Positions 1 to 43,944 of a DNA stretch of 53,150 bases are shown here, piece by piece. The DNA is from an uncultured virus (IMG/VR IMGVR_UViG_3300028586_000785) (Duplodnaviria > Heunggongvirae > Uroviricota > Caudoviricetes). The notes below the pieces were generated by a model, which worked only from the letters and a program-made list of their open reading frames with translations, was not told the DNA's origin and made no database searches. The position numbers and the translations under genes were made by a program. The DNA is taken from IMG/VR virus record IMGVR_UViG_3300028586_000785. One strand, written 5' to 3'. Position 1 is the first letter of the stretch. Every line of letters starts with the position of its first letter.

Positions 1-431
1 TTCTTGACCAAGATTGCAGAGATAACCTCGTGCCGAATAAGGCTTCTGTCAAGACCACGCGGCACATGAAGACCGTTCTTTCCCATGAACGCATCATTGA
101 GTTCATTGACGTAATCATCTTCTGATGCAAGGAATACGGGGGAGGATTTACCTAGGTCGTGAATACCGGCAAGGAAGATGGCAAGGGTGCGCGCATCATC
201 ATCGCCTCCCACGGCAATCGAGACATCCCTCTTTGCTGCCTCTGGTAGGTACTCATCATATAGTCTAGATGCGACTAGAGCCGTATCAGCAAGGTGTCGG
301 TACAGGGGCATCCAGAAGGTAGTGTCCTTACCCTTCTGGGTCTTACCCCAGACCGAACGCGCCGCAATAGATAGGCTCTCAGCCTTGCGTGCTACACGGA
401 GCGCGTGCTTCTCATGGTTAGTTGGCATCAT
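1..431 (-). CDS. cas3: Cas3-type HD nuclease N-terminus (partial, runs off the window edge)
   Basis: Not in the ORF track because it has no stop. Manual translation: MMPTNHEK...SVWGKTQKGKDTTFWMPLYRHLADTALVASRLYDEYLP...FLAGIHDLGKSSPVF...IRHEVISA, matching type I-E Cas3 HD motifs (WxK, PLxxHxxD, HDxGK). Whether a helicase domain follows cannot be seen. Confidence 0.75.
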   Translation of the reverse strand, partial: MMPTNHEKHALRVARKAESLSIAARSVWGKTQKGKDTTFWMPLYRHLADTALVASRLYDEYLPEAAKRDVSIAVGGDDDARTLAIFLAGIHDLGKSSPVFLASEDDYVNELNDAFMGKNGLHVPRGLDRSLIRHEVISAILVK

Positions 432-29210: not shown

Positions 29211-30410
29211 TTAGCCCTTGACGCAGAGCACTGTTCTGAGGTGCTGGACAACCTCAACGAGGTCAGACTGCGAGTCCATGACGTGCTTCAAGTCTTTGTA
29301 TGCTGCCGGAATTTCGTCCACAACACCCTGGTCCTTGCGTGACTCTACACCCTGGGTCTGAGCAATCAGATCTTCGACTGTGTACTTACGCTTTGCAGCG
29401 CTTCTGCTCATCCTTCGACCAGCACCGTGAGATGCCGACTGGAACGAGGCATCGTTTCCTAGACCTCGAACTACGTATGAACCAGTACCCATCGAACCAG
29501 GGATTAGTGCCACATCACCTAGTCCAGCACGAATAGCACCCTTACGAGTCACTAGCATCTCTTCGCCATCGATGATCTCTTCCGCAACATAGTTGTGGTG
29601 AACGTTAATCTCTTCGTCAAAGGTTACGGTCTTCTTGTCACCGTAGTGCTTACGAAGCGCCTCTCTGAACAAAGCCATCATGATAGAACGAGAGCGTAGA
29701 GCGTACTCCTGTGCCCACATAAGGTCGTGGCGGTAAGCATCCATCTCAGGCGTACCAGAGATGAATACTGCTAGGTCACGATCAATGAGGTCAGAGTTGT
29801 GAGATAGCGTCTGCGCGATACCAATGTGACGCTCGGCAAGAGACTTACCGACGTTGCGAGACCCAGAGTGAAGAGTTAACCAAACGACACCATCTTCATC
29901 GACACAGAGTTCAATAAAGTGGTTTCCGCCGCCGAGTGTGCCCATCTGAGAGTGAGCGCGACCTTCGACAGAAGCAGCGTCCTTGTGAAGGTTCTTGAAG
30001 TCATCCCAGAAGATATCCCAACCCTTTTCAAGACCAAGCTGACGTACATTGACATCCCTATCGTGACCTCGGAACCCCACTGGAATGGAGTTCTCAATCG
30101 ATGCCCTCAACTGAGGAAGGCGCTCTAGATCCTCTTCACGCAAGCTGGTCCGAACAGCAACCACTCCGCAACCAATGTCTACACCAACAGCGTTGGGAGA
30201 TACAGCCTGCTTCATGGCGATTACCGAACCAACAGTAGCGCCCTTTCCTACGTGGACATCAGGCATGACGCGAACGCCGTGAACCCAAGGCATCGATGAG
30301 ATGTTGCGCAACTGCTTGAGGGCATCCTGCTCAACTTCCCACTCGTTTGCCCACATGTGTACTGGTGACTTTGTTCCCCGAAGCTCTACCGGGAATCCTA
30401 ACTCGTTCAT
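29211..30410 (-). CDS. rtcB: RNA ligase RtcB
   Basis: MPDVH.G, VGVDIGCG, GTLGGGNHFIE, HSGSR, HHNY, PGSMG, SHGAGR, DEIP.AYK. Confidence 0.97.
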   Translation of the reverse strand: MNELGFPVELRGTKSPVHMWANEWEVEQDALKQLRNISSMPWVHGVRVMPDVHVGKGATVGSVIAMKQAVSPNAVGVDIGCGVVAVRTSLREEDLERLPQLRASIENSIPVGFRGHDRDVNVRQLGLEKGWDIFWDDFKNLHKDAASVEGRAHSQMGTLGGGNHFIELCVDEDGVVWLTLHSGSRNVGKSLAERHIGIAQTLSHNSDLIDRDLAVFISGTPEMDAYRHDLMWAQEYALRSRSIMMALFREALRKHYGDKKTVTFDEEINVHHNYVAEEIIDGEEMLVTRKGAIRAGLGDVALIPGSMGTGSYVVRGLGNDASFQSASHGAGRRMSRSAAKRKYTVEDLIAQTQGVESRKDQGVVDEIPAAYKDLKHVMDSQSDLVEVVQHLRTVLCVKG

Positions 30411-30537: not shown

Positions 30538-31035
30538 TTAGAGTGCGAACAGTGTTTCCATGTCATATCCAGTTGACGCGATCTCTCGCACCAAGACCTC
30601 CTGCTGGTAGACAGGTCTTGGCTGGAATCGAAGAGCCATGTTAGCTTCCTCGGGTGTCTTGTTGGACTTCTTACCGTTGCATGGCTGGCATGCAGAGATG
30701 AGGTTCATCCACGTGTTCTTACCTCCACGCGACTTAGGCTGGATGTGGTCAACTGTTCTAGCGTGCTTACCGCAGTAAGCACACGTGTAGTTGTCACGGA
30801 TCAAAACCTTCTTGAAGCGAGGCTGCATTTCACCGTTACGGTATGGCACCTTGACCATCTTGGTGAAACGAACAGCGATAGGGATGGGGAACTCACCGGA
30901 TGAAGTCTTCACCACAGCGCCTTCACGAGCACGGACGATTTCTACACGTCCCTTGAAAACATTGCTCATAGCCTTGTGGAGCGAAACGACACCAAGAGGC
31001 TCGTAACTTGCATTCAATACGATTACACCGGTCAT
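30538..31035 (-). CDS. HNH endonuclease at the distal end of the tRNA array
   Basis: RDNYTCAYCG...TVDHIQPKSRGG...NLISACQPCN; paralog of 21512-22048. Confidence 0.9.
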   Translation of the reverse strand: MTGVIVLNASYEPLGVVSLHKAMSNVFKGRVEIVRAREGAVVKTSSGEFPIPIAVRFTKMVKVPYRNGEMQPRFKKVLIRDNYTCAYCGKHARTVDHIQPKSRGGKNTWMNLISACQPCNGKKSNKTPEEANMALRFQPRPVYQQEVLVREIASTGYDMETLFAL

Positions 31036-31105: not shown

Positions 31106-31182
31106 TGGTCGGAATGACAAGATTTGAACTTGCGACCCCCTGTCCCCCAGACAGGTGCGCTACCAAGCTGCGCCACATCCCG
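31106..31182 (-). tRNA. tRNA-Pro(GGG)
   Basis: Cloverleaf, encoded CCA. Confidence 0.95.
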
Positions 31183-31213
31183 TTAGCCCTTTTGACGATA
31201 AGGGCATCGTTAG

Positions 31214-31287
31214 GGTGATCGACGGGAGTTGAACCCGCAACCAACAGGTTCACGACCTGCCGCTCTGCCAGTTGAGCTACGAAAACC
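31214..31287 (-). tRNA. tRNA-His(GTG), degenerate
   Basis: G-1:C73 pair; two acceptor mismatches; C33 instead of U33. Confidence 0.65.
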
Positions 31288-31397
31288 ATACGCCAGGAAG
31301 CCTGGCTCTTGCTGTGTGAGTTTGTATTAGCCACTCACAGGCTCTGTGCGCCTGTCTCAGCGCCTAACATGTAGATGCTGAAATGAGCCACAGAGAT

Positions 31398-31563
31398 TGG
31401 TGGAGCGCCGTAGACTCGACCTACGGTAACGGTACATCGCTGCCCGCTATTTCTCTCTTTGGCACTACTGCATTCGACATGATGTAGGTTACCGAAAGAA
31501 CTGATGCCGCGTTCATGACTACTCCTGTTGTCAACAGGAAGGTTTCATGGACTCATTCACCCC
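31398..31563 (-). ncRNA. CCA-ended tRNA-like element (5' boundary uncertain)
   Basis: Ends CGTAG-GTCGAGT-CTACG GCGCTCC A CCA; 5' GGGGTG could pair with CGCTCC (G3:U70). Confidence 0.35.
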
Positions 31564-31565
31564 TG

Positions 31566-31639
31566 TCGGAATAGGGGGAGTTGAACCCCCGACCTCTCGC
31601 CCCCGAAGCGAGCGCGCTACCAAGCTGCGCCATATTCCG
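31566..31639 (-). tRNA. tRNA-Pro(CGG)
   Basis: Cloverleaf. Confidence 0.95.
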
Positions 31640-31995
31640 TAAATCGCAACCAAGCCAGTCCGGTTTAACAGCCTTCATGGAAGCAGGGTTATGATCCCTG
31701 AACTATGCTCTTGATCACTGGTGGATTATCACCACTCTTGTCACTTGGGCGACCAGTCAAGTCACTTGCTGTCTTCCACGATGGGTACGCAGTATTCGGA
31801 ATCTATACCTCACAAATCAGCAAGTCCAGCGAACACCCGTTAGGGCACTACCAGCAAGCTTAATCGTCTCATCCGCTTGTGATTCGAGCCAGGCACTCAG
31901 TCTTCATCACCAGACATCGTTCTTTCCACGGTGAACGACCACCCTCATCGACTCATTTCCTTGATGACTAATCAAATCTGTCGATGTCTCCCCAG

Positions 31996-32068
31996 TGCCC
32001 CGTACTGGACTCGAACCAGTGACCTACTCTTTAGGAAAGAGGTATTCTATCCGCTGAACTAACGGGGC
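31996..32068 (-). tRNA. tRNA-Arg(CCT)
   Basis: Cloverleaf. Confidence 0.9.
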
Positions 32069-32074
32069 ATATCG

Positions 32075-32545
32075 CTATACCGACTTCTGCCAAATCATGA
32101 AGTCAGTACCAACGTAGTAAACAACGTGCGGGTCCACATGAGTTGCAGTGAAGCCAGACGTAGAGAGAATGTGTTGCATGGATTTTGAACCAGGGTGAAC
32201 ACTTGCGGTGAAGTGCTTTGTCCCAGATGCCATAGCATCTTCAAGCAGCCTATCAACTATCAATCGACCGATACCGTGACCCTTAGTGGATACGTAGACA
32301 CCCGAGATATATCCGGACGTTACGTCAATGAAGCCGGTACCGACAATCCGCTCACCATCTCTCGCGATGAGGCAGATACTTGAATCCAATTTTGCAAGTA
32401 CATCAGTAGGGCTGTACTCACCATCAAGCCATGCTCCAATATTGGGATGGTCAAGATGGGGCGAAGCCAGCGAAACACTGGCTACATGGTCGATAACAGA
32501 TTGAACATCTCCGACATTCATCGGAGTGATTACCAGATTGACCAA
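32075..32545 (-). CDS. GNAT-family N-acetyltransferase inside the tRNA array
   Basis: IVGTG...ISGVYV..KGHGIGRLIV acetyl-CoA motif A. Confidence 0.75.
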   Translation of the reverse strand: MVNLVITPMNVGDVQSVIDHVASVSLASPHLDHPNIGAWLDGEYSPTDVLAKLDSSICLIARDGERIVGTGFIDVTSGYISGVYVSTKGHGIGRLIVDRLLEDAMASGTKHFTASVHPGSKSMQHILSTSGFTATHVDPHVVYYVGTDFMIWQKSV

Positions 32546-32573
32546 TGCAGTTTTCCATTTCGTTTACTTCGAG

Positions 32574-32646
32574 TGGATCTAAGGGGACTCGAACCCCTGA
32601 CCCCCTGCATGCCATGCAGGTGCGCTACCAACTGCGCCATAGACCC
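32574..32646 (-). tRNA. tRNA-Ala(GGC)
   Basis: Cloverleaf, G3:U70. Confidence 0.95.
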
Positions 32647-32647
32647 G

Positions 32648-32719
<72 letters not shown>

Positions 32720-32966
32720 ACAACCGCAACCAAGGCTGCGTTGTGCATGTTGTCTAGACTACTAGACCACGGTGTACCACCGGCTGATTTTTGATAAGAC
32801 ATCCTGCGCTAACAGCAAGTCAACGGGAATCAGAACCCGAAGAACCCAGAAGCCTCCACACGTAGGTGAGAAGACTTCCGGAAGTAGCAAGATTTTGTGT
32901 GAGTCCATGTGCACTGGGTTCTCATTTTGTACTTGCTGTTACCGAGAGATCCTGTCCCCGGCTCTG

Positions 32967-33039
32967 AGCCACCTAAGAGATTCGAACTCTTGACCTTCCG
33001 ATTACGAAACGGATGCTCTACCAACTGAGCTAAGGCGGC
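32967..33039 (-). tRNA. tRNA-Thr(CGT)
   Basis: Cloverleaf. Confidence 0.92.
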
Positions 33040-33062
33040 GAAGCACCTTGCGGTGCCGATGT

Positions 33063-33272
33063 TTAGTCCTCGTCGTAGACTGAAAAGTCAAACGTTCGAG
33101 GGAACGGGGTGAGGTTGTTGATGAAGGTGTCATCCTCCATGTTGTAAACCACACTACCCGACCGGTTGGCAGTGTTTTCGAGAATCTGACCCAACCTGAG
33201 TTGTGGGTTAGCCTTCCAATACCGACGTAGTTCGTCAAGTACCAGTTCGATGCGCTGTTCGTCTCTTGCCAT
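33063..33272 (-). CDS. small hypothetical protein
   Basis: GAGGA RBS; MARDEQRIELVLDELRRYWKANPQLRLGQIL. Confidence 0.65.
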   Translation of the reverse strand: MARDEQRIELVLDELRRYWKANPQLRLGQILENTANRSGSVVYNMEDDTFINNLTPFPRTFDFSVYDED

Positions 33273-33334
33273 GTGTTCCTCTTCCGTTGTGTTTCTGGAA
33301 GCATACACTGTGAGAGCATTCATCTGGATGTAAC

Positions 33335-33410
33335 TGGTGCCCCCGACTGGACTCGAACCAGCGACCTTTACTTTCGGAAAGTAGTGCTCTATCCACTGAG
33401 CTACAAAGGC
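33335..33410 (-). tRNA. tRNA-Arg(CCG)
   Basis: Cloverleaf, encoded CCA. Confidence 0.9.
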
Positions 33411-33413
33411 AAA

Positions 33414-33449
33414 GATGATAGCTGCTTCGTTTCCGACCTGACTATCACC
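33414..33449 (-). ncRNA. SRP RNA domain IV (helix 8)-like mini-hairpin
   Basis: GGTGATAG-TCAGG-TCG-GAAA-CGA-AGCAG-CTATCATC versus 4.5S RNA GUCAGG-UCC-GGAA-GGA-AGCAGC. Confidence 0.65.
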
Positions 33450-33461
33450 AGTACTGTGTGC

Positions 33462-33833
33462 CTATCTAGGCAACGAGGTTTCGAGATACATCTTCTGCAT
33501 CAATTCGGCAAAGAGTGCAACGAACTCGTCTTCGTCGAGAAAACCTGCGTAATCGTCACCTGTCACACCGTTCTTGAAAGTGACGTAATCACTCTCGGGT
33601 ACATGCCGAGCAGGACGACCAATTGTCAGCGAAGCGCAGTCGCTTCTAAATCGGAAATAGAACTGAGCATACCCAAGGTAAGTCCCTGTGGCTTGGAATG
33701 GTACTGCTCCACCAGCCCTCTCAAAAGAGAGACCAGGAAAGAGAGGTTCAATCCTGTCTTTTGCGACATCAATCATCTTGACAACAGGCTCGCTGTCATC
33801 GTTCTCATTCATATCTACACTGAGCATTGCCAT
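33462..33833 (-). CDS. hypothetical protein
   Basis: 123-aa ORF with GAGGGG RBS between tRNAs. Confidence 0.6.
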   Translation of the reverse strand: MAMLSVDMNENDDSEPVVKMIDVAKDRIEPLFPGLSFERAGGAVPFQATGTYLGYAQFYFRFRSDCASLTIGRPARHVPESDYVTFKNGVTGDDYAGFLDEDEFVALFAELMQKMYLETSLPR

Positions 33834-33846
33834 TCCCCTCTTTGAG

Positions 33847-33919
33847 AGCCGACTAGGGGACTTGAACCCCTAACCTACGCATTACAAGTGCGTTGCGCTA
33901 CCAATTGCGCCAAGTCGGC
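33847..33919 (-). tRNA. tRNA-Thr(TGT)
   Basis: Cloverleaf. Confidence 0.95.
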
Positions 33920-33981
33920 ATGTTCTGCTACTGAGTAAACAGTAGCAGAGTTGATGGTGAGTTCCAAATTGAGTACCTAGC

Positions 33982-34191
33982 TCAATAGAACACATCGATA
34001 TCTGCATACGTACTAGCACCCCCGCTTGACGTAACCATGATTTCTACCGCATTGGATAGACACAGTTCGCAACATCCGACTTCTACCACCCTGGTATCGA
34101 ACGAGATACGCTCTTCATCACCAACAGTGAATCCGTTTTCTCTCAGAATTTCTCTACCCCATGCAATCAACAACGACGACGAATTCATCAT
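33982..34191 (-). CDS. small hypothetical protein
   Basis: 69-aa ORF with GGAAGG RBS. Confidence 0.4.
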   Translation of the reverse strand: MMNSSSLLIAWGREILRENGFTVGDEERISFDTRVVEVGCCELCLSNAVEIMVTSSGGASTYADIDVFY

Positions 34192-34260
34192 TCACTTCCT
34201 TCCGCTTGTGTGAACCAATATTCCACACGCCTGAAGGTTGTTATGTGCTGCTGATTAGCG

Positions 34261-34333
34261 TGCGCCTGAAGGGAATCGAACCCCCGACCTGTTGATCCGT
34301 AGTCAACCGCTCTATCCCCTGAGCTACAAACGC
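34261..34333 (-). tRNA. tRNA-Arg(ACG)
   Basis: Cloverleaf. Confidence 0.93.
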
Positions 34334-34436
34334 AATGAGCGGGAAATTCGAGGATCAGTTACCGACACGCTCATGGGTAACCGCCTATTTGGACGAAGCT
34401 TTATACACGGTTGGTTATCGTCCATTGCAACCGTTG

Positions 34437-34509
34437 TGCCCTCGGCAGGATTCGAACCTGCGACCAAGAGATTAGAAGGCTCCTGCTCTATCCCCTGAGC
34501 TACGAGGGC
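34437..34509 (-). tRNA. tRNA-Arg(TCT)
   Basis: Cloverleaf. Confidence 0.93.
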
Positions 34510-34585
34510 GGGATGAGAGGTGTGGTCCCTCTACCAAGAGCGTTGTTGAGGCACTCGAAGTAGTTTCAACAAAACCACACCGTCG

Positions 34586-34657
34586 AGCGGATGACGAGAA
34601 TCGGACTCGCGACATTCACCTTGGCAAGGTGACGCTCTACCACTGAGCTACATCCGC
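34586..34657 (-). tRNA. tRNA-Gly(GCC)
   Basis: Cloverleaf. Confidence 0.92.
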
Positions 34658-34703
34658 ATGTGGTACTTACAAACCGCTGGTGACCCAGCAACTTGCAAAA
34701 CCG

Positions 34704-34798
34704 TGGAACTGATCGGGATCGAACCGATACCTTCTGAAACGCGCGCCGCTCCTTGCTCTACCCGCCACTATTGCAAATGGCTATTGAGCTACAGTCCC
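34704..34798 (-). ncRNA. tRNA-Ala-like RNA with a hairpin inserted in the D-loop
   Basis: GGGACTG/CAGTTCC-A (G3:U70); GCTC-AATA[GCCATT-TGCAAT-AGTGGC]GGGTA-GAGC; anticodon loop GG-CGC-GC; TTCGA T-loop. Confidence 0.75.
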
Positions 34799-35120
34799 AT
34801 GTATTCGGAAGCTAGGAAGCTTCATATAGCTAGCTTACCGAATCCTAAAGGGTTTGTCTAGTAAACAGTGACCCATTAGTGGTAATGCTGTAACCCCACA
34901 TTACTAGGGTGCTTACTCCATCGCCACTAATCGTCGCAGCTAAGGCGGGTAAAGCAAACCCGCTTCCCAGTTACTAGCTGGGAATCAGAGCCTCAGTGAG
35001 TTTGACTACTTCGATAAGCCACTACAGCTTCTCTCGGCAACCACTTTACTGAGGTTGAGGCTTGAATCTCCCCTCACATTGCGGTAGTTAGTCGCTATGC
35101 AAGAGCTTCATCAAGCTTTG

Positions 35121-35192
35121 AGCGGTCAAATGGACTTGAACCATCAACTCTTAGCTGGAAGCTAAGTTGCCATACCCGGAGGCTCTGACCGC
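35121..35192 (-). tRNA. tRNA-Gly(TCC), atypical
   Basis: Perfect acceptor and anticodon stems; G at position 8 and an unusual D-arm. Confidence 0.75.
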
Positions 35193-35270
35193 ATGTGGTC
35201 TTTTCTTCTTCTCGTACCCGGACTAGGAGACCTTACCTACCGGGACCATAATGGCTGATCATTTCCATCG

Positions 35271-35342
35271 AGCGGATGACGAGATTCGAACTCGCGACCC
35301 TAACCTTGGCAAGGTTATGCGCTACCACTGCGCCACATCCGC
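35271..35342 (-). tRNA. tRNA-Gly(GCC)
   Basis: Cloverleaf. Confidence 0.95.
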
Positions 35343-35605
35343 ATGTCGTGATGCACCTAGCTTATACGATTTCATCCAACGCGTTTGGATTCTTCGTACT
35401 TACTAGGTACTTCACTATGGCGCTTTCATCCATATGCTTCATAATGAAGTCTGCGAGAGCCGAATTCCGTCTCGCACCCAGGTCCGCTAGCCCTGTTTCC
35501 GGTTTAGTCTATGCAACCCCTCTACTCCGGCAGAGTCCTAACTTTTCACTGCGGTTCACACAGAGGCGTTAGGAAGCCTTCACCGTATTTCCGGTGATGC
35601 CACAG

Positions 35606-35676
35606 AGGGGATGACGGGAATCGAACCCGCGACATCAGTTTGGAAAACTGAGGCTTTACCATTAAGCTACATCCCC
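35606..35676 (-). tRNA. tRNA-Gly(TCC)
   Basis: Cloverleaf. Confidence 0.95.
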
Positions 35677-35821
35677 ACAGAGCCTAGCTCGTATTCATGA
35701 ACAACCACTGCAAGAACTACCAAGCAGTCATTATCCTAACCGGCGACTAGGGTATAAACAGTACACACACGTATCCGCACTCGGGGTAGTTAGTCCCTAA
35801 ACTTCAACAGCTTCTTGTTCG

Positions 35822-35895
35822 TGGATCTGACGCGACTCGAACGCGCAACATTCTCCGTGCAAGGGAGACGCTCTACCAATTGGAGCTACAGACCC
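35822..35895 (-). tRNA. tRNA-Ala(TGC)
   Basis: Cloverleaf. Confidence 0.92.
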
Positions 35896-36140
35896 ATGTG
35901 TTCCGTTTCCGCACGCTTGCAATCGTTTGGCATCAAAGGGAAGTAAGTCACGGAACACGAACCTACCGACTGTGCCGTCCACGTGGGAAGACACCCTGCA
36001 ATTATCTCAAGACCTTCATCGTTACATACCACCTGTGTCACCAGGCGCTCCCGAATCGACGGGAGAATGTTTTTACCAGACGTTTGACGACATCTGGTGT
36101 CTTGGTTTTTACCTAAGTAGACTAAGCTACGAAGATAAAG

Positions 36141-36214
36141 CGACCCTGACCGGACTTGAACCGGCGACCTCCGCCGTGACAGGGCGGCGCTCTAACCAAC
36201 TGAGCTACAAAGTC
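36141..36214 (-). tRNA. tRNA-Asp(GTC)
   Basis: Cloverleaf. Confidence 0.93.
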
Positions 36215-36272
36215 ATATTTCTAATTACGCTGTTGTGTTGTAAATATCCGAACCTCTTGACGAGATGTTACC

Positions 36273-36301
36273 AGCTTACACACCTTGTCTCCACTTGTCA
36301 A
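36273..36301 (-). promoter_or_regulatory. sigmaA-type internal promoter
   Basis: TTGACA-17-TAAGCT with extended TG. Confidence 0.7.
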
Positions 36302-36315
36302 GCCCATTTCCATAA

Positions 36316-36583
36316 TTCCCGTCGAAACGAAAGATTACCCACGGTAGAGGTCATCGGGGAGCATCCCAGCCAAAGCAAGGAGTTGATGAATCAGAAGGTT
36401 GGGGCGGTTCATCCCTACCGGAGTAGGGATTGGAATGGACGTGGAGGTCGTCAAGGTTCACCCCTTCCGCAGAAGGGAATGATTGGGTCTAACGGTCGCA
36501 GCGGATCATCCCTAGCGAACTAAGGAACTTCACAATGCGAAGGTCAGGGTGGAGCATCCCGTTACCGGGAACCTCTTGCGAGG
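36316..36583 (-). repeat. array of five degenerate structured repeats with ~48-nt period
   Basis: Plus-strand motif GGTY-N5-GGWKCAYCCC-N(6-10)-RGGA, with GGWKCA at 36358, 36406, 36455, 36503 and 36551. Confidence 0.75.
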
Positions 36584-36659
36584 TGGTGACCGTAGAGGGA
36601 TTTGAACCCCCGACATCTAGCGAGTCATGCTAGCGCTCTACCAACTGAGCTATACGGTC
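36584..36659 (-). tRNA. tRNA-Val(GAC)
   Basis: Cloverleaf, encoded CCA. Confidence 0.93.
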
Positions 36660-36831
36660 ATGTAGCACCTGTTTCGTCGGTTGCATACGTCGGACTTCGA
36701 CCGATGAATTTCATGCCGTGCGCACACCATGAAATCCAGCACACAACAGCACCGTGGTGCTGCGAGTCCCAATCTTAGCACATTGTCTGCTTATTGGAAC
36801 CCTACCTCATCAGAGTAGTGATGAAGTTGAG

Positions 36832-36906
36832 TGGGGTGAGCGGGACTTGAACCCGCGAATCGTCGAATTATGAGTTCGGTGCCTTAACCAGCTTGGCTAC
36901 CACCCC
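36832..36906 (-). tRNA. tRNA-CAT (Ile2 or elongator Met)
   Basis: Cloverleaf with CAT anticodon. Confidence 0.88.
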
Positions 36907-36961
36907 TTGTTCATAATAAGAGTGTAACCCGACAGACCAATCAAAGTCAAATCGAGCATCG

Positions 36962-37034
36962 AGGCGACGACCGGATTCGAACCGGCATAATCTTCTTTTG
37001 CAGAGAAGCGGCTGACCTTTCACACCACATCGCC
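36962..37034 (-). tRNA. tRNA-Cys(GCA)
   Basis: Cloverleaf, U73, weak D-stem. Confidence 0.88.
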
Positions 37035-37158
37035 ATATTGCCTAACCCGCCAACCCTATGATTTCTCATTTCCGTTGCTTGACTTCCCTCACGGACTGTT
37101 GTGGGAAAGTTAGGACTTCTGCGAGCGTTGCAACCTTACGTACCGGATACTCGCATTG

Positions 37159-37231
37159 CTCCTCCATGTGGACTCGAACCACAAACCTGTCGGTTAACAG
37201 CCGACTGCTCTGCCAATTGAGCTATAGAGGA
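37159..37231 (-). tRNA. tRNA-Asn(GTT)
   Basis: Cloverleaf. Confidence 0.95.
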
Positions 37232-37358
37232 ATATGGTGACCAAGACTAGGCTCCTGCTGAGGGAGCTTCCGACACCTTTCACCTAATCCAACTTCTCGG
37301 GCGCTTCGCCTACGCCATGTTTCAGTGACTGCATGATGAACCACATGCTACGGTTTTC

Positions 37359-37442
37359 GATAGTAAAACGATTCCGAGTCGATACCTCCCGTTAGTCCTC
37401 TGTACACAAGGCGGGCGTGCTGCCAATTACACCACTACTATC
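37359..37442 (-). ncRNA. tRNA-like RNA with expanded anticodon arm
   Basis: GATAGTAG/TTACTATC stem, canonical D-arm GTGT-AATTGGCA-GCAC, CCCG[CCTTGTGTACAGAGG-ACTAA]CGGG, degenerate T-arm. Confidence 0.55.
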
Positions 37443-37467
37443 TCATCGCTGGTATCCCAACGACTTG

Positions 37468-37540
37468 TACCCCCGGAGAATTTCGAAATCTCGACCCGCG
37501 GATTAAAAGTCCGATGCTCTAACCTCTGAGCTACGGGGGC
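37468..37540 (-). tRNA. tRNA-Lys(TTT)
   Basis: Cloverleaf. Confidence 0.9.
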
Positions 37541-37692
37541 TTATTCGGTCGGTGAGCGACTTTGCAGTATCCCTAGCCGACCTATTCGTTGACGAGGCAC
37601 CAATCCCCTTTGTCCTACCCAGCACGCAACGAAGTACCCGTTCTGGTAGTGAGATCCCATCGCAGCCTGCAAAAGCTGTATGGAATCGGTCG

Positions 37693-37765
37693 TGGCTCCG
37701 ACCGGCATCGATCCGGTGACCTCGCGATTTTCAGTCGTGCGCTCTACCAACTGAGCTACAGAGCC
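37693..37765 (-). tRNA. tRNA-Phe(GAA)
   Basis: Cloverleaf. Confidence 0.92.
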
Positions 37766-37910
37766 ATTTGGTGATAGGTCAGTGCAGTACATGCCTATCA
37801 CTCGCCAGTCGCTTCGTTTCTGCAAGTTCCACGACTGGGTATTGCATTCTCCGCACACCGGAGAAAACTAAAGGTATGAAACCCAGTGTTACTACCGACC
37901 TAAGCCGGAG

Positions 37911-37995
37911 TGCCCGTACCGAGACTTGAACTCGGATGGTCCGTAAGGACCGCTAGCACCTGAAGCTAGTGCGTCTGCCATTCCGCCATACGGGC
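37911..37995 (-). tRNA. tRNA-Leu(CAG)
   Basis: Cloverleaf with long variable arm. Confidence 0.95.
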
Positions 37996-38010
37996 ATGTG
38001 TTCAACCTAT

Positions 38011-38580
38011 CTATATTATTACGTCAGGTTTGTTGCTTTCGAATGACAAGATGTATTCAATCGCATTCTGCATGATTACAACATCATCATTGAAAAAACC
38101 TAATCCTACATTGCATCCATGACAAAGAAGACCTCTAACAGCACCAGTTTTATGCGAATGATCAATGCAGGGCGGCTTTCCTATCTCAGCGAAACCGGTC
38201 TTGCAAATCAAGCAAGCAAAGTCTTGGGCTACTAGCATAGCTTCGTACTCATGGTACAGCAGACCATACTTAATAAGTATCTTTCTTGTACGCTCAGCCT
38301 CTGATGAAATAGACCACTCTACTCTTTTACTGTCTCGTCGGCATATCTTGCATCTGCTTTGGTACCCATCGCCTCGACCTCTATTGAAGTCGAATTCAGA
38401 TACATTCTTTACCAAACTGCATTTGCTACATAGCTTCGTAACCTTCTGTGTAGAAGTCTTTTTGTTCTGGTAAGACCTAGCACACTCTTTACATTTGGAA
38501 CTGTAACCAGACTTCCTTGTTTTATCTGGATAGAAGTCTGACGATATTTTGTCTGTTTTACATTTGTAACATCTGAGCAT
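38011..38580 (-). CDS. endonuclease VII-family (homing-type) nuclease
   Basis: CLIC...IDHSHKTGAVRGLLCHGCNVGLG; two N-terminal CxxC...CxxC repeats; visibly AT-richer than flanks. Confidence 0.85.
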   Translation of the reverse strand: MLRCYKCKTDKISSDFYPDKTRKSGYSSKCKECARSYQNKKTSTQKVTKLCSKCSLVKNVSEFDFNRGRGDGYQSRCKICRRDSKRVEWSISSEAERTRKILIKYGLLYHEYEAMLVAQDFACLICKTGFAEIGKPPCIDHSHKTGAVRGLLCHGCNVGLGFFNDDVVIMQNAIEYILSFESNKPDVII

Positions 38581-38610
38581 TTGGCGATACTATCGCATCT
38601 GCTGAGTTAA

Positions 38611-38851
38611 TTCAATCAACCCGTAAGCCGAGTTCTGTTTTAGACTGTCATCTGTCTGAGCCGCCTACCCGTCTTTCAAAGGGCGGCAATTCCCTCAGAC
38701 TGTTTGGCGTTGCTTACATCCTGCACCCTACTTCTTAAGCTAGGCTTAGTGGTTCTTGAGCGACAAACCAAAAGTTTGTCTACCACACGGTAATTGCCGA
38801 AAAGCTCGGACTTTCCTAAGGCTTGCGCCCTCGACAGTCCAGTTGATTGAA
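38611..38851 (-). ncRNA. rnpB: RNase P RNA, minimal (~241 nt)
   Basis: P1 TTCAATCAAC/GTTGATTGAA; P2 GACTGTC/GACAGTC; CR-I AGGAAAGTCCGAGCT; AGCAA; AGACAGATG; CR-V ACAGAACTCGGCTTAC. Confidence 0.88.
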
Positions 38852-38854
38852 AAT

Positions 38855-38998
38855 TGGGTGACTGAGCCGGATTTACACCAGCGACCTCATGAGCCGTATC
38901 CTCATGAACTTTGTTACGAGCGTGGTTATCGTCTCAACCCGAGACACTCGGTATGCATCCCAAGTGTTTGTCTTTTCGCCCTACAAGCTACCAGTCAC
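38855..38998 (-). ncRNA. CCA-ended tRNA-scaffold RNA with ~70-nt branched D-loop insert
   Basis: GTGACTGG/TCAGTCAC-CCA; TCATGAG-GATACGG-CTCATGA anticodon arm; GCTGG-TGTAAAT-CCGGC T-arm. Confidence 0.7.
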
Positions 38999-38999
38999 G

Positions 39000-39072
<73 letters not shown>

Positions 39073-39281
39073 TTATGCAGGATTTCCCGGTTACTACCCC
39101 GGTTTACCTGCGACTGGTGCCAGACCAGTCAACCGCTCTTGCGATGGTCCTGCAAGAGAAGGCGCGCACTAGGGTATCCCGTAAGCGACACGGGGCAATT
39201 TCTGGTATTACTACCCTCCCGTTTGGCTGGGAGACAGCCTTTCTGCTAGTAAGGCAGAAACATTCTCTCGTTTCCGAGAAG

Positions 39282-39354
39282 TGCGCCTGGAGGGACTCGA
39301 ACCCCCAACCTTTTCGTCCGTAGCGAAATGCTCTATCCGTTGAGCTACAGGCGC
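39282..39354 (-). tRNA. tRNA-Arg(ACG)
   Basis: Cloverleaf. Confidence 0.95.
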
Positions 39355-39553
39355 ATTGTGTGGGATTATGACTCTTACCAAGGGGTCGGACACCCACGAC
39401 GCTCTTCACGCAAGAACGCTAAACGGGACACGCGGTCACCTCGTAGTCCATAAGGGACGGTGTTAAAGCTAACCGACAACTAGGTTACTACGGAGAACCC
39501 TGCCCTTGCACTTGGTGTGTGCGATTCATCTCACTAGCAGTACTACTAATGGA

Positions 39554-39629
<76 letters not shown>

Positions 39630-39829
39630 ATGTTGACGACTTAGAGGGCAGCTAATCATTTCTACTCCCATATCGTCTGATGAGGTTAACGCTCGGTACT
39701 CATCCATCTTGCGGCACCCTTGCAACCAAGGACCGCTAGATACCGCCGGTTTCCCTTTCGGGACGAACATGCTCCCCCGCGCTGGTCAAGTGATTAGTTC
39801 GCCAGTTATGCAGTTTGTCATGTTCCGAG

Positions 39830-39903
39830 TGGTCGTAGGTGGACTTGAACCACCGACCCCTTCGTTATCAGCGAAGTGCTCTAACCAACTGAGCTATACA
39901 ACC
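39830..39903 (-). tRNA. tRNA-Ile(GAT)
   Basis: Cloverleaf. Confidence 0.95.
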
Positions 39904-39965
39904 ATTGCCGCTTTCGCGGCGTTTCCTCTATGTAGTTACCAAAGTAGTTCCTTGTTGATATCTCT

Positions 39966-39995
39966 ACCTTAGCAACATGTTTGTGTTGTTGTCAA
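39966..39995 (-). promoter_or_regulatory. sigmaA-type internal promoter
   Basis: TTGACA-18-TAAGGT. Confidence 0.65.
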
Positions 39996-40020
39996 GTCCA
40001 AACGAGAAAAAGTTTGGAAG

Positions 40021-40111
40021 TGGAAACGGAGGCGGGATTTGAACCACTTATGCGCGTATGAAAGCCTCTAGGTTATGAGCCTAGCAAGATACCGAACTTC
40101 TTTACTCCGTA
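40021..40111 (-). tRNA. initiator-Met-like tRNA(CAT) with insertion in the variable/T region
   Basis: CTAGG-CTCATAA-CCTAG, U1.U72 mismatch, encoded CCA, ~14 extra nt before a mispaired T-stem. Confidence 0.6.
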
Positions 40112-40113
40112 AG

Positions 40114-40188
40114 TGACGCATACGGGACTTGAACCCGTAACCTTCGCCGTGAAAGGGCGATGCAACTGACCAATTGTGCTAATGCGCC
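40114..40188 (-). tRNA. tRNA-Glu(TTC)
   Basis: Cloverleaf. Confidence 0.92.
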
Positions 40189-40294
40189 AGAACTCTCAAT
40201 ACGAGAGCCTTTGCGGACTGGATACCGCGACCACGATGCAATCATCTGCCATTTCTCTTTGTCTCCACCGGATTCCAGGAGAGACATTGAGCAG

Positions 40295-40368
40295 TAGGGA
40301 TATGCGGACTTGAACCGCAGACCTCTTCGTTATCAGCGAAGCGCTCTAACCAACTGAGCTACACCCCT
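40295..40368 (-). tRNA. tRNA-Ile(GAT)
   Basis: Cloverleaf. Confidence 0.95.
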
Positions 40369-40467
40369 AAGTGGTTGCTCCGAAAAATCTCGACACAACC
40401 GGTATTGGCGAGAGATCTCTTCGTCACTTACGGTAATGAGCCGATAGTGATGATTGAAGAGGAAGCG

Positions 40468-40540
40468 TGGAGTCTAGGAGAATCGAACTCCTGACATCCT
40501 GCTTGCAAAGCAGGCGCTCTACCAACTGAGCTAAGACCCC
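40468..40540 (-). tRNA. tRNA-Ala(TGC)
   Basis: Cloverleaf. Confidence 0.95.
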
Positions 40541-40748
40541 GAACAAAACCGGCATTTGAGAAGTGCGTATCTAAACTCGGGCTTCTCGCGGTAATCTCTT
40601 ACCAATTCACCTGACCTCTCGCTTTCACGCTAGGTCCAACTCGCTTGCCGGTGTCGGAACAAACCTTGCGGTTCATGCCTAGCATCTTCTAGTTACAAGC
40701 AGAAGATGCTATCTATAAATCCCAGGTCTAAGACCCTTCGTTGTAACG

Positions 40749-40822
40749 TTGCGGGGGATGGATTTGAACCACCGACTTCTAGGTTATGAGCCTAGCGGGC
40801 TACCGAACTGCCCTACCCCGCA
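40749..40822 (-). tRNA. tRNA-Met(CAT), initiator-like
   Basis: TGCGGGG-TA-GGGCAGTTCGGTAGCCC; CAT anticodon. Confidence 0.9.
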
Positions 40823-41010
40823 TCACTGTTCCTCGATACTAGCACAGAGGCTATGCTCTGCACAATAGTTCGTGGAAGATAAATGGTCTCGCTGCGAGGA
40901 TCGATCCCCGCACTGCCTTGGACGACAGCCAATGCCCGGGCGACTGGTAAGGGGATATCACTCCCTACCGCACTGACTGCGACTGTACAATCTACGTCAG
41001 TAACCATAAG

Positions 41011-41084
41011 CACCCCGTACCGGATTCGAACCGGCATCTTTACACATATATGCAAACGACATTCTCCGTTAGTCGCAACAGGGC
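41011..41084 (-). ncRNA. tRNA-like RNA with 6-nt anticodon loop (TATATG)
   Basis: GCCCTGT/ACGGGGT acceptor, CGAC/GTCG D-stem, GCCGG-TTCGAAT-CCGGT. Confidence 0.65.
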
Positions 41085-41163
41085 ACCTTCCAAGTCACCT
41101 TCATCTAGAAATCAGGTGACTCTTCGGTTGAGACGGCTAAGAGCCAGTGGCTCTCACCGTTTG

Positions 41164-41236
<73 letters not shown>

Positions 41237-41354
41237 ATGTGCTGCGCGAAGACTATCTGAGTAAGCTTCCTCATACGACAACCGCAGCTTGCGCCCCGCA
41301 CGGAACAATCATCCCGCCGAACTTGAATCGAGACCTTGCAAAGCCTCTCAACCG

Positions 41355-41431
41355 TACCCCCAGATGGACTTGAACCACCGCCTCCCGCCACACACGGACG
41401 AGCGCTCTGTTCTCTACTGAGCTACAAGGGT
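41355..41431 (-). ncRNA. tRNA-like RNA with aberrant D-loop and anticodon loop
   Basis: GCTC-AGTAGAGAACA-GAGC (no GG), CTCGTC-CGTGTGT-GGCGGG, canonical T-arm. Confidence 0.6.
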
Positions 41432-41548
41432 ATAACTGGATACTAACCCGACCCAGCACAGGCATCAAATTGTTCTACATGAGGTTTGATGAACTCGCGT
41501 CTTGTTCGTAACCCCGTCAAGCTTTAGGGGCATTGTTGCAACATTGCG

Positions 41549-41622
41549 TGCCAACTACCGGAGCCGAACCGGTGACCTACTGCTTTTCAAACAGTCGCTC
41601 TGTCCAACTGAGCTAAGATGGC
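41549..41622 (-). tRNA. tRNA-Phe(GAA)
   Basis: Cloverleaf. Confidence 0.88.
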
Positions 41623-41750
41623 AAGTGGGTTGATTACGCCTCAGTAGTTCAACCCTGGTGCAAAAGACCTCCTGAGGAAGGCTACGTAGTGTCTTTCGCT
41701 AGTTATCTAACCCTCCAATGGTTCCGGAGTGCGGAGTCTTTGGGTTATCG

Positions 41751-41824
41751 TGACGCTGACGGGACTTGAACCCGCAACCTTCTGGCTGAGAACCAGATGC
41801 AACTGCCAATTGTGCTACAGCGCC
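41751..41824 (-). tRNA. tRNA-Glu(CTC)
   Basis: Cloverleaf. Confidence 0.92.
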
Positions 41825-42033
41825 ATAACAACTTTTCGCATCAGGACGATTAGCCCCTGCATCTCACCAGAACTAACTAGTGCGGATTTCTTTATCCCAT
41901 GCGATGTTGTGTTCCTAGTGTGGTCTATCAACCGGCTCCCTACACCGGAATCTCCCGCCCTCGGCGGTTGGGTTGGACTTTCCCTATTGACATGTGTTTT
42001 TCAGGAGACACTAGTACGTCCTGCACATTTACT

Positions 42034-42063
42034 ACCTTACAGTAGTAGCTTCTCTCTTGTCAA
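42034..42063 (-). promoter_or_regulatory. sigmaA-type internal promoter
   Basis: TTGACA-18-TAAGGT. Confidence 0.65.
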
Positions 42064-42088
42064 GTCGAAACAAGAAGTTTTTGAAACG

Positions 42089-42163
42089 TAGCGCAGACGG
42101 GACTCGAACCCGCAACCTTCGCCGTGAAAGGGCGATGCAACTAGCCGATTGTGCTACTGCGCC
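42089..42163 (-). tRNA. tRNA-Glu(TTC)
   Basis: Cloverleaf. Confidence 0.92.
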
Positions 42164-42404
42164 AAACACTAAGCTGAGTATGACCAACTTAGGATGCCGA
42201 TGGATACATCATCATGCGCAGCGGTCAGATATTCACCCGACATTCCTACACAAAGCGTTCCACCTCAATATCAGCAACCTCCGGCAAGAGGTTTCATACT
42301 GCTGTCCTAGGGGTATACGGGCTAATACCTAGGAACCCAAAATGACCTTGCCGGGTCATCCCGTTAGATAATGAGTGTAGTCAAGACCTTCCTCATCATC
42401 TTTG

Positions 42405-42478
42405 TCGCTCAGGGCAGACTCGAACTGCCGCATAACACCGTTATGAGCGGTGCGCCTTACCATCTTGGCTACTGAGCG
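42405..42478 (-). tRNA. tRNA-CAT (Met or Ile2)
   Basis: Cloverleaf with CAT anticodon. Confidence 0.88.
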
Positions 42479-42628
42479 TCAGAAGTCCATCGTACTGTCA
42501 TCACGACGTTCGATGGACCTGATTGGTGATGCATGATAAGCGTGCAATAGCAATCACCGGGCAACATCATTACAGCAACGGCACTCATTGCAACTACCAT
42601 TGCACCGGTAGTCCTGTAAATCAGTGCG

Positions 42629-42710
42629 TGCCCGATGAGAGACTTGAACTCTCACGTCCGAAGACACAGGAACCTAAATCCTGCGTGTCTGCCAATTTCA
42701 CCAATCGGGC
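42629..42710 (-). tRNA. tRNA-Leu(TAG)
   Basis: Cloverleaf with long variable arm. Confidence 0.95.
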
Positions 42711-42714
42711 ATTC

Positions 42715-43039
42715 TGGTGGTCCCTAGCCGGACTTGAACCGGCACCTCCGCCATCCTAATCGCATACGCTGGGCGGCGCTCTACCTAAACCCACCTTCAC
42801 AAGCCTTCCAGTGCGCTACTGACCTCCGATAATCACCTTTGCTAGTTCTCGTCTTACTCACGCAAGCAGTGTTCCCACAGCCTGTCAGGGGTTTCGCCTG
42901 ACTCCTTTTTATAGCTTATGCGATTGTTACCGTAAGCTCTTACTTGCGCTTTCTTCCGAGTTTCACATCGGCTTTCTCTTTGGTGTTTACACACCTTGTT
43001 TCTTGCTCCAACACCAAGGGTTCATTGAGCTATAGAGAA
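42715..43039 (-). ncRNA. 325-nt CCA-ended tRNA-scaffold RNA with ~237-nt D-loop insert
   Basis: TTCTCTA-TA-GCTC-AAT[GAACCC...GGGTTT]AGGTA-GAGC-G-CCGCC-(19-nt loop)-GGCGG-AGGT-GCCGG-TTCAAGT-CCGGC-TAGGGACC-ACCA. Confidence 0.75.
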
Positions 43040-43099
43040 AATCTAGGTCCAAGTGTCATCTTATGCTTCCTGGTAATCAGGGCTGCTTGAACTCTATTG

Positions 43100-43190
43100 C
43101 GGAGAGGGTGGGATTTGAACCCACGGTAGGATGTGACACCTACGGCAGCTTTCGAAACTGCTGCACTAAGCCGGACTATGCGACCCCTCC
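43100..43190 (-). tRNA. tRNA-Ser(CGA)
   Basis: Cloverleaf with long variable arm. Confidence 0.95.
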
Positions 43191-43364
43191 AAAACTCATG
43201 TGAAGCTATCGATGGGCAGTTCCTTTCGGAATACATCACCTGCCGTCAACGTCTGCCGACGTATGAGACGACTCGATACCACTTCACACCATCCACAACA
43301 GCGATACCATGCTGTTCGATGACTTTCTAATCCCTTTTTGGTATCTGAATCAGAACATAATTCG

Positions 43365-43438
43365 GGTGGACGACGGGGCTTGAACCCGCGACATCCGGCT
43401 CCACAAGCCAGCGCTCTACCAACTGAGCTACGCCCACC
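43365..43438 (-). tRNA. tRNA-His(GTG)
   Basis: Cloverleaf, G-1:C73. Confidence 0.95.

Positions 43439-43871: not shown

Positions 43872-43944
<73 letters not shown>

Follow-up and report, generated by a model that had tools for sequence, protein, structure and literature searches.

We analysed a 53,150-nucleotide (nt) stretch of DNA from an uncultured virus of the Caudoviricetes (IMG/VR IMGVR_UViG_3300028586_000785), here called the window, and in particular a structured array with a period of about 48 nt that lies on its minus strand between a tRNA-Val(GAC) and a tRNA-Asp(GTC) gene. This array is probably, at a chance that we put at roughly 70%, a non-canonical CRISPR array that serves the phage's own type I-E effector and is aimed at bacterial tRNA genes. 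Its five guides alternate with six repeats, of which the last is degenerate and the others are full (Table 1). The fold of repeats, the cas genes and the protospacer matches of a CRISPR array are all present, whereas identical repeats, the usual spacer length and Cas1 are not.

The window is phage-like; its open reading frames (ORFs) include RtcB, HNH and endonuclease VII nucleases, a dUTPase and a DNA methylase. Relatives were sought with double-unit patterns in viral, metagenome and genome contigs. The single close relative found is G001, an IMG/VR contig of 202,737 bp (96% complete), whose RtcB is 92% identical to that of the window and relative to which the window is in antiparallel orientation. 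Two short metagenome contigs (L061 and L062) are near-identical to the window and carry the array too, and the remaining matches of the double-unit scan were unrelated coding repeats. Comparisons below thus rest on two independent lineages, the window phage and G001.

Array units and likeness to type I-E repeats

The motif GGRTGMWCC-N5-RACC occurs in five copies without mismatch, on the minus strand only (36349, 36397, 36446, 36494 and 36542). Spacings of 48, 49, 48 and 48 nt and the five N5 strings had been read in the initial annotation, which a model made from the letters alone; both are confirmed here, and an independent repeat search agrees on the spacings. When up to one mismatch is allowed, the motif has eight matches in the window against 0.87 +/- 0.85 expected, and none of 100 shuffles reaches eight. 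The same annotation had placed a variable hairpin after TCCY, and this was borne out. The hairpin has seven pairs, is paired in 89.4% of cells and has three pairs changed on both sides; its covariation is 0.176, compared with 0.083 in shuffles, and 0 of 500 shuffles reach that value. The three lowest pairs (U-A, C-G, C-G) are constant, and the upper pairs vary with compensation. A second variable segment, described at first as usually a hairpin, did not hold up: a trial helix there is paired in 28% of cells, and the long-range pairs proposed by RNAalifold are not general.

The loops (UUCG, UGCG, UCCG, GUAA and UUUG) are stable tetraloops of RNA type, on the minus strand only, and folding of the whole region gives z = -1.6 for the minus and -0.07 for the plus strand. 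A sixth, degenerate hairpin with a UUCG loop (36332-36317) lies in phase with the array. In G001 the array has five orthologous units that measure 46-48 nt, with exactly 48 nt in each of the final four. The few single-nucleotide polymorphisms (SNPs) among the near-identical contigs either lie in a loop or replace a U.G pair by C-G. A covariance model of the unit, which had been suggested as a check, was built as R1 and finds only these five units per genome; R1 has no match in Microbacterium phage Zooman.

With four bases of 5' flank, the first 29 nt of a unit have the layout of a type I-E repeat: a 7-bp stem, a tetraloop and an 8-nt handle AUGMWCCN. Type I-E arrays of Escherichia coli K-12, Pseudomonas aeruginosa SMC4386 and actinobacteria show the same 29 nt: first come 4-5 nt, then a stem of 7 bp with its tetraloop, then a handle of 8 nt that ends in CC(N). 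The lower stem (UCCC/GGGA) and handle match natural variants of these repeats, the last repeat is likewise degenerate, and the cas genes are likewise of type I-E. Each phage repeat retains the features common to I-E repeats, namely the lower stem UCC(C/U)...GGA and the handle, both invariant in all ten units of the window and G001; the upper stem, which stays paired, and the loop vary between copies. In contrast to the I-E arrays, the phage repeats are not identical (mean pairwise identity in the window 0.57, range 0.41-0.76) and so are not near-identical direct repeats, and the guides of 19, 19, 20, 19 and 19 nt with a period of 48/49 stand against spacers of 32-33 nt and a period of 61. The phage also differs in lacking Cas1 and a detectable separate cse2, and in that its array lies 36-45 kb from the cas genes, in a tRNA operon.

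We built a second covariance model, R2, solely from the ten phage repeats of the window and G001. On a 30-kb stretch of E. coli K-12, R2 gave 25 matches at E <= 10 with 13.9-26.1 bits. Thirteen of these adjoin cas2 at a spacing of 60-62 nt (mostly 61) and ten form a second cluster (28422-29408), and the 23 E. coli repeats score 17.1-22.1 bits. A model made from the phage repeats thus matches E. coli I-E repeats. The remaining two matches are both strands of one repeat-like site between cas3 and casA, which is the regulatory mini-array described by Shmakov et al. (10.1101/2023.03.03.530964). On another viral contig (L111), R2 found three repeats at 61-nt spacing with 25.2 bits. The background consisted of the window, G001, Zooman, Streptomyces pSTRVI01 and G002, about 0.9 Mb together; the best scores outside arrays were 12.4 bits in the window, 15.0 in G001 (beside cas6e), 13.2 in Zooman and 16.8 in pSTRVI01, and G002 had no match at E <= 1. 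The best R2 match in E. coli is the repeat-like site between cas3 and casA (L091 9482-9510, plus strand), a solitary one; its stem, UCCCUAC/GUAGGGA, is also the stem of phage unit 4.

Direct comparison with known repeats gave a similar result. The sole Rfam match at E <= 10 was a CRISPR repeat family. The 10- and 11-mers GGGATGAACCG, GGGATGATCCG and GGGATGCTCC of the window recur in type I-E repeats that have been published for P. aeruginosa, Bifidobacterium, Streptomyces and Pelobacter. The I-E repeat of P. aeruginosa SMC4386 ends in GGGGATGAACCG, and actinobacterial ones end in GGGGATGATCCC, GGGGATGCTCC, GGAGGTGAACCG or GGGGGTGTTCCG. Unit 4 and the P. aeruginosa repeat, aligned by eye, are equal at 19 of 29 positions, the last 11 included.

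Guides in a tRNA register

Complementarity of the variable segments to tRNA, also proposed at the outset as a check, was found for all guides in one register and is the key to our reading of the array. The reverse complement of a guide reads as tRNA from the first anticodon base to the fourth base of the T-stem (positions 34-52), and the guides end at the invariant GTTC of the T-loop. Every guide contains the constant RACC because this is the complement of GGUY at the junction of variable loop and T-stem. Scored in antisense and in this single register against 60 phage tRNAs, the ten guides of the window and G001 reach 7.4-8.9 of 19. Other registers or the other strand give 4.6-4.9, and at most 2 of 300 shuffles reach the observed values; as a control, 113 19-mers from other spacers score at most 6.53.

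The guides are better conserved than the repeats. Between the window and G001, guides are 74-100% identical (mean 90%) and repeats 55-76%. Guides 1 and 5 are identical, guide 4 differs by one base (position 12), guide 2 by four (positions 9, 12, 15 and 19) and guide 3 by five (positions 1, 2, 10, 12 and 19). Position 12 is therefore changed in all three diverged pairs, for which our own arithmetic gives a chance of about 0.003. In type I Cascade, every sixth guide base is flipped out and unpaired. Such flipping is stated for type I-F1 in 10.1101/2023.03.03.530964.

Natural sequences were scanned over viral contigs with the guide complement plus GTTC, any base being allowed at guide positions 6, 12 and 18. 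Guide 1 has 27 loci, and 25 of them read as a CGC anticodon and the 3' part of tRNA-Ala; ARAGORN finds a complete tRNA-Ala(CGC) in six. Several of these contigs hold the tRNA-Ala fragment twice, in the manner of phage attachment (att) sites. Guide 5 has three loci, all of tRNA-Val(CAC) sequence and one a complete gene. Over the 30 loci, mismatches lie at positions 12 and 18 in 26, at 18 alone in three, and at 6, 12 and 18 in one. Positions 12 and 18 are among those that Cascade leaves unpaired. The pattern fixes 20 bases, and fewer than one chance match is expected by our own estimate, for which the size of the collection is not given. The guide 1 pattern was absent from all 401 genomes of one unrelated phylum.

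The phage itself does not appear to be the target. Ala(CGC), Val(CAC) and Gly(CCC) are not among the 67 tRNAs that ARAGORN finds in the window, and the closest pair of guide and phage tRNA agrees at 14 of 19 positions or fewer. G001 has no further guide 1 site with three or fewer mismatches. The window and the loci L001 and L097 contain 10-12-mer matches at chance level alone, and in the same three sequences no target of the cas/creT-promoter type stands above chance. A BLAST search of phage genomes with the array at E <= 10 yielded no match to a tRNA.

Table 1. Position, strand and basis of the array and of neighbouring features in the window
Feature	Position	Strand	Basis
cas3 5' end (HD domain)	3..431	-	Pfam Cas3_HD, E 1e-21; ORF leaves window start
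tRNA-Val(GAC), directly upstream of array in transcript	36584..36659	-	ARAGORN; Rfam tRNA, 66.3 bits
Small hairpin CCUC-GCAA-GAGG, right after CCA end of tRNA-Val	36572..36583	-	Read from sequence
Repeat 1, I-E-like, shorter 5-bp stem, GUAA loop, handle AUGCUCCA	36550..36574	-	R2, 23.5 bits
Guide 1, 19 nt, antisense to tRNA-Ala(CGC) 34-52	36531..36549	-	Viral-contig matches; identical in G001
Repeat 2, stem UCCUUAG/CUAGGGA, UUCG loop, handle AUGAUCCG	36502..36530	-	R2, 36.6 bits
Guide 2, 19 nt, tRNA-antisense register	36483..36501	-	7.38/19 vs 5.14 shuffled; 1/300 shuffles reach
Repeat 3, UGCG loop, handle GUGAACCU	36454..36482	-	R2, 31.7 bits
Guide 3, 20 nt, tRNA-antisense register	36434..36453	-	7.47 vs 5.21 shuffled; 2/300 shuffles reach
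Repeat 4, stem UCCCUAC/GUAGGGA, UCCG loop, handle AUGAACCG	36405..36433	-	R2, 37.1 bits
Guide 4, 19 nt, tRNA-antisense register	36386..36404	-	8.85 vs 5.38 shuffled; 0/300 shuffles reach
Repeat 5, UUUG loop, handle AUGCUCCC	36357..36385	-	R2, 32.1 bits
Guide 5, 19 nt, antisense to tRNA-Val(CAC) 34-52	36338..36356	-	Viral-contig matches; identical in G001
Terminal degenerate repeat, handle unconserved	36309..36337	-	By eye; no R2 detection at E <= 10
Promoter-like TTGACA-N17-TAAGCT, just downstream of array	36273..36301	-	Conserved in G001
tRNA-Asp(GTC), next gene downstream	36140..36214	-	ARAGORN

Cas genes, transcription and genome context

Pfam revealed in G001 an operon in the order cas3-cse1-cas7e-cas5e-cas6e, and NCBIfam names all five genes as type I-E, with CasA, CasC, CasD and CasE above cut-off. 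Cas3 of G001 is a protein of 977 amino acids with HD and helicase parts. The initial annotation had seen no Nop-domain partner gene in the window; its view of the partner has to be corrected, since the first ORF (431 to 3) is the N-terminus of Cas3 (Pfam), 88% identical over 143 amino acids to Cas3 of G001. Because this ORF is the HD domain and runs off the end, the operon would start inside the window and continue past its start, as judged from G001. Between array and cas3 there are 36 kb in the window; in G001, about 45 kb separate the array from cas6e. A search of G001 for Cas1 at E <= 1, which was positive in the E. coli control, found none (Cas2 was not searched for), and no separate cse2 gene came to light in its operon. 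The closest Cas7e sequences are nine metagenomic proteins (52-76% identical), followed by a tier at about 40% that consists of actinobacterial I-E Cas7; this kinship, together with the best phage matches, hints at an actinobacterial host or origin.

Directly after cas6e of G001 lies a mini-array (L097 11761-11850; G001 121761-121850) that R2 detects as two weak matches 45 nt apart. Its first repeat has the hairpin UCCCA-GUGA-UGGGA and the handle AUGUUCCU, followed by about 19 nt, and its second has a canonical-looking stem and a degenerate handle. The guide scores 6.87 in the tRNA comparison, best at shift 0, a value that 2 of 300 shuffles reach. With its single guide, the mini-array is built in the same way as the tRNA-linked one.

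Cse1 of G001 (L097 7207-9261) is 684 amino acids long, about 180 above the solved Cse1 proteins (502-558). Its C-terminal part matches the Pfam family of Cse2 weakly (E 0.029, 15.2 bits, below the cut-off of 24.6). No homologues of the C-terminus were found for an alignment, and a single-sequence fold had a mean confidence (pLDDT) of 47, too poor for a search. A Cse1-Cse2 fusion suited to a shorter complex is a possible, unsupported interpretation.

Metagenomes of leaf litter, straw and phyllosphere contain the stretch, and so do six metatranscriptome runs of leaf litter. In all four metatranscriptome runs examined, RNA contigs cover the array with no difference (X10 36230-36573; X12 36232-36572; X17 36279-36569; X19 36237-36387 and 36362-36512). 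This coverage and the restriction of tetraloops to the minus strand agree with the earlier view of an RNA-level array on the minus strand within a tRNA transcription unit. Other tRNA spacers are covered by RNA as well, and the tRNA genes are mostly uncovered; depth and gaps of RNA contigs were for this reason set aside as a sign of processing. Several of the tRNA spacers, which are long (up to about 1 kb, 31.2-49.9 kb), have an RNA-contig depth above that of the array. A promoter-like family, CTTGACA-N17/18-TAAGGT/TAAGCT/TAAGTT/TACAGT, recurs on the minus strand at 50067, 47043, 44619, 42063, 39995 and 36301, and also at 52530; its members occur every 2.4-3.7 kb through the tRNA cluster, and the site at 36301 comes right after the array.

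Around the array, the minus strand carries a cluster that extends from 31.1 to 50.0 kb and comprises 67 tRNA genes together with an RNase P class-A-like RNA and a transfer-messenger RNA (tmRNA) (ARAGORN, Rfam). The tRNA set (31106-49989) covers most anticodons, the absent Ala(CGC), Val(CAC) and Gly(CCC) being C34 isoacceptors; the first two are the very tRNAs whose sequences guides 1 and 5 match. The tmRNA (45444-45833; Rfam 125 bits) has the tag peptide ANASRNDFALAA according to ARAGORN. The RNase P-like RNA (38608-38850, minus strand) is shortened, with 243 nt and 79.2 bits against a gathering score of 100 (E 8e-23); it spans model positions 1-367, and a phage-borne copy would be unusual. 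Endonuclease VII/HNH ORFs (38011-38580, 30538-31035 and 21512-22048, minus strand) lie within or beside the tRNA cluster, as is the case in Microbacterium phage Zooman; those of the tRNA region are likely homing endonucleases. Two further proteins might be defence or counter-defence genes: one with a DruA-like (Druantia) domain in the window (22273-23013, plus strand) and an ArdC-N/metallopeptidase protein near the cas operon of G001 (L097 13480-14523, plus strand).

Mechanism, alternatives and meaning

We propose that the array would be transcribed as the trailer of tRNA-Val within the phage tRNA operon. By analogy to type I-E, Cas6e would cut 3' of each hairpin and release CRISPR RNAs (crRNAs) of about 48 nt, each with handle, guide and next hairpin. 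The initial annotation had suggested small guide-like RNAs of this length, and the order of I-E repeat and guide is how an array cut in this way would be built. The crRNAs with their 19-20-nt guides may load a shortened Cascade; the E. coli Cascade that forms on shortened guides holds fewer Cas7 subunits (PMC5159557). The guides are read as fixed, without acquisition: no Cas1 is present, and the guides are conserved between relatives. The complex may bind tRNA genes beside the T-loop, with GTT (AAC on the other strand) as the flank on the side of the protospacer adjacent motif (PAM), the same for every target. The outcome could be DNA degradation by Cas3 from the tRNA genes onward, or silencing through binding only. 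The identical sequence is carried by elements that use these tRNA genes for integration, so rival mobile elements may be the real or additional targets.

Several observations weigh against a CRISPR array of this kind. As to the cas genes, the operon lies beyond the window except for 143 amino acids of Cas3, and its link with the array is co-occurrence in two related genomes at a distance of 36-45 kb. G003, a partial and more distant relative found with a Cas7e profile (58 kb, 20% complete), has neither such an array nor tRNAs. Real repeats individually receive modest scores from R2 (17-26 bits, at an E of about 1e-3), and an I-E repeat variant of Streptomyces pSTRVI01 was detected by neither R1 nor R2. 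The mismatch pattern of the natural matches is not independent evidence, since the scan itself freed positions 6, 12 and 18; if all 19 positions are required, there are zero matches, since position 18 differs in 30 of 30 loci. Matching to natural sequences covers two of the five guides (1 and 5), in viral contigs. RNA contigs span the whole spacer (36230-36573), so that some transcripts at least are unprocessed; assembled RNA contigs carry neither strand nor ends, and carry-over of DNA into RNA libraries is possible. The implied PAM AAC on the non-target strand is, to our knowledge, not among the strong I-E PAMs of E. coli. Interference in E. coli requires spacers longer than 20 nt (PMC5159557), and therefore guides of 19-20 nt may only bind.

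Might the array act on the host's Cas proteins instead? An RNA anti-CRISPR decoy of the Racr or Cracr type would soak up or reprogramme host I-E Cas6e or Cascade with mimics of its repeats. Phage repeat mimics that inhibit types I-E, I-F, I-C and V-A are known (PMC10651486), as are viral crRNA-like arrays of two to three units with pseudo-spacers of 17-24 nt (10.1101/2024.10.29.618823). Furthermore, the handle variants AUGCUCC, AUGAUCC, GUGAACC and AUGAACC equal those of different natural I-E repeats, as would fit a decoy of several variants. However, the phage has a complete I-E interference operon of its own with a mini-array of the same unusual build directly after cas6e, its guides match tRNA genes and, in the window, L001 and L097, no cas or creT promoter above chance, and a pure decoy does not need guides that are better conserved than its repeats. 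We therefore regard a decoy as unlikely. A relic, that is, a decayed and now functionless array inherited with the cas genes whose spacers once came from tRNA genes or tRNA-att sites, would account for the non-identical repeats (mean pairwise identity 0.57), the missing Cas1 and the short spacers. Decay is hard to reconcile with hairpin pairing kept by compensatory changes, with a lower stem and handle invariant in 10 of 10 units, with conserved unit number and period, and with SNPs between near-identical contigs that fall in loops or change U.G to C-G; moreover, the two phages have the same guides 1 and 5, although their repeats agree at only 55-69%. This makes a relic quite improbable.

The location in a tRNA operon raises another explanation, a structured trailer of the tRNA precursor unrelated to CRISPR, for example a site for Rho loading, clustered RNase E sites or hairpins that block exonucleases. 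The array holds the 80-nt stretch with the strongest excess of C over G in the 19-kb tRNA region (31 C vs 12 G), in 8 of 10 units RA|CCU is consistent with RN|CNU, the RNase E motif of mycobacteria (PMC10641625), and tRNA spacers are generally rich in UNCG/GNRA loops (24 of 143 four-base-loop hairpins on the minus strand vs 2 of 95 on the plus strand). Yet C-richness and the RACC core both follow from guides that are antisense to the G-rich segment of tRNA variable loop and T-stem, and we explain the Rho or RNase E signals as by-products of this. A trailer predicts neither the likeness to I-E repeats nor the cas operon nor the tRNA-antisense guides; RNA contigs run through the array, and at five further promoters of this family no such array intervenes between the promoter and the tRNA before it. 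It is thus very improbable. The likeness to TIGR-type arrays, which the initial annotation had put forward with caution, comes from the alternation of constant and variable segments and the variable palindromes, which loosely recall stem-loop TIGR arrays (PMC12045711). Such an array would be read by a Tas protein with a Nop domain. That domain (PF01798) was not found in G001 at E <= 10, with controls positive in 5 of 14 genomes, nor among 40 ORFs of the window; each unit has one guide of 19-20 nt and not two of 8-12 nt, and the hairpin is local, closed by a tetraloop and does not enclose spacers. The system is read as CRISPR type I-E, and a TIGR array is scarcely credible.

Other candidates were tried and rejected. 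The G001 units (L003 2952-3240) form one open frame of 16-codon repeats, which we take as accidental; protein coding is contradicted by a TAG stop in window unit 2, by the frameshift of the 49-nt unit and by residue-altering changes between the phages. A K-turn or box C/D motif was dismissed because the base of the hairpin shows no conserved GA at its 5' side, and a transcription terminator because RNA contigs cross the array and the promoter-like site, although partial termination is still compatible. For a DNA binding-site array or an origin, the covarying stems with UNCG/GNRA loops argue instead for RNA. A tRNA-linked mobile hairpin element was set aside, the 10-nt likeness of unit 5 to the 3' end of tRNA-Val being at chance level by our own arithmetic, and a link to Ro/Y RNA was dropped as the TROVE domain was not found in G001.

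Among known systems, the CRISPR-Cas of huge phages and of ICP1 also lacks acquisition genes and has compact arrays (median six repeats), sometimes with targets related to host translation (PMC7162821). Their repeats are ordinary and identical, however, and targeting of tRNA by all guides in one register is not described in what that source gives, whose supplementary tables may list further targets. Cracr and the mini-arrays of host CreR and CreA resemble the phage array in degenerate repeat-like units, small size and pseudo-spacers of 17-27 nt (10.1101/2024.10.29.618823, 10.1101/2023.03.03.530964); they bind and do not cut, and the phage complex may do the same. As far as these accounts go, they hijack host Cas proteins and match cas or toxin promoters with two to three guides, whereas the phage has its own Cas3 and Cascade, 5 + 1 guides and matches in tRNA genes. 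Racr elements are phage-borne mimics of CRISPR repeats too, type I-E included, and are described as solitary units without guides or cas genes (PMC10651486), in contrast to six tandem units with conserved guides and a cas operon. The Cas12r-CRISPR of phage Lalka has spacers that hit elements integrating into tRNA genes (10.64898/2026.04.20.719267), but it is reported as type V with normal spacers of 32-33 nt and protospacers inside the elements, not in the tRNA sequence itself. TIGR-Tas shares short guides, little repeat conservation and occurrence in phages; its units have two spacers of about 9 nt between box C/D repeats and require the Nop-domain Tas protein (PMC12045711), and neither that protein nor dual 9-nt spacers or a box C/D layout were found here. 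A word search of the literature, in which words and not meaning are matched and which leaves absence unproven, found no description of such an array. What sets this case apart is the combination of a complete I-E effector of the phage's own, diversified repeats, guides of 19-20 nt, a site in a tRNA operon far from cas, and guides that are all directed at tRNA genes in one register.

A wider picture, to which we lean less than halfway, is that a phage of about 200 kb carries a hard-wired, acquisition-free mini type I-E weapon with diversified repeats, whose guides all address bacterial tRNA genes, missing isoacceptors included, for RNA-guided shut-off of the host or exclusion of rivals that bear tRNA-att sites, tied to a take-over of translation. 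Host decoding capacity would then be replaced by the phage's 67 tRNAs, tmRNA and RNase P-like RNA, and the diversified repeats may make the array resistant to recombination and hard for CRISPR finders to see.

The array indicates that functional-looking CRISPR arrays can have mutually divergent repeats and guides of 19-20 nt. Finders that depend on repeat identity would miss such arrays, and so would the Racr pipeline, which discards clustered repeats (PMC10651486). A naturally shortened I-E complex with 20-nt guides and a possible Cse1-Cse2 fusion would be of interest for the mechanism of Cascade and for tool building. If our reading is true, the use of a universally conserved tRNA feature as constant flank would yield escape-proof targets, and a phage CRISPR system with fixed guides, all on tRNA genes, would offer a testable reason for the near-complete tRNA sets of some large phages.

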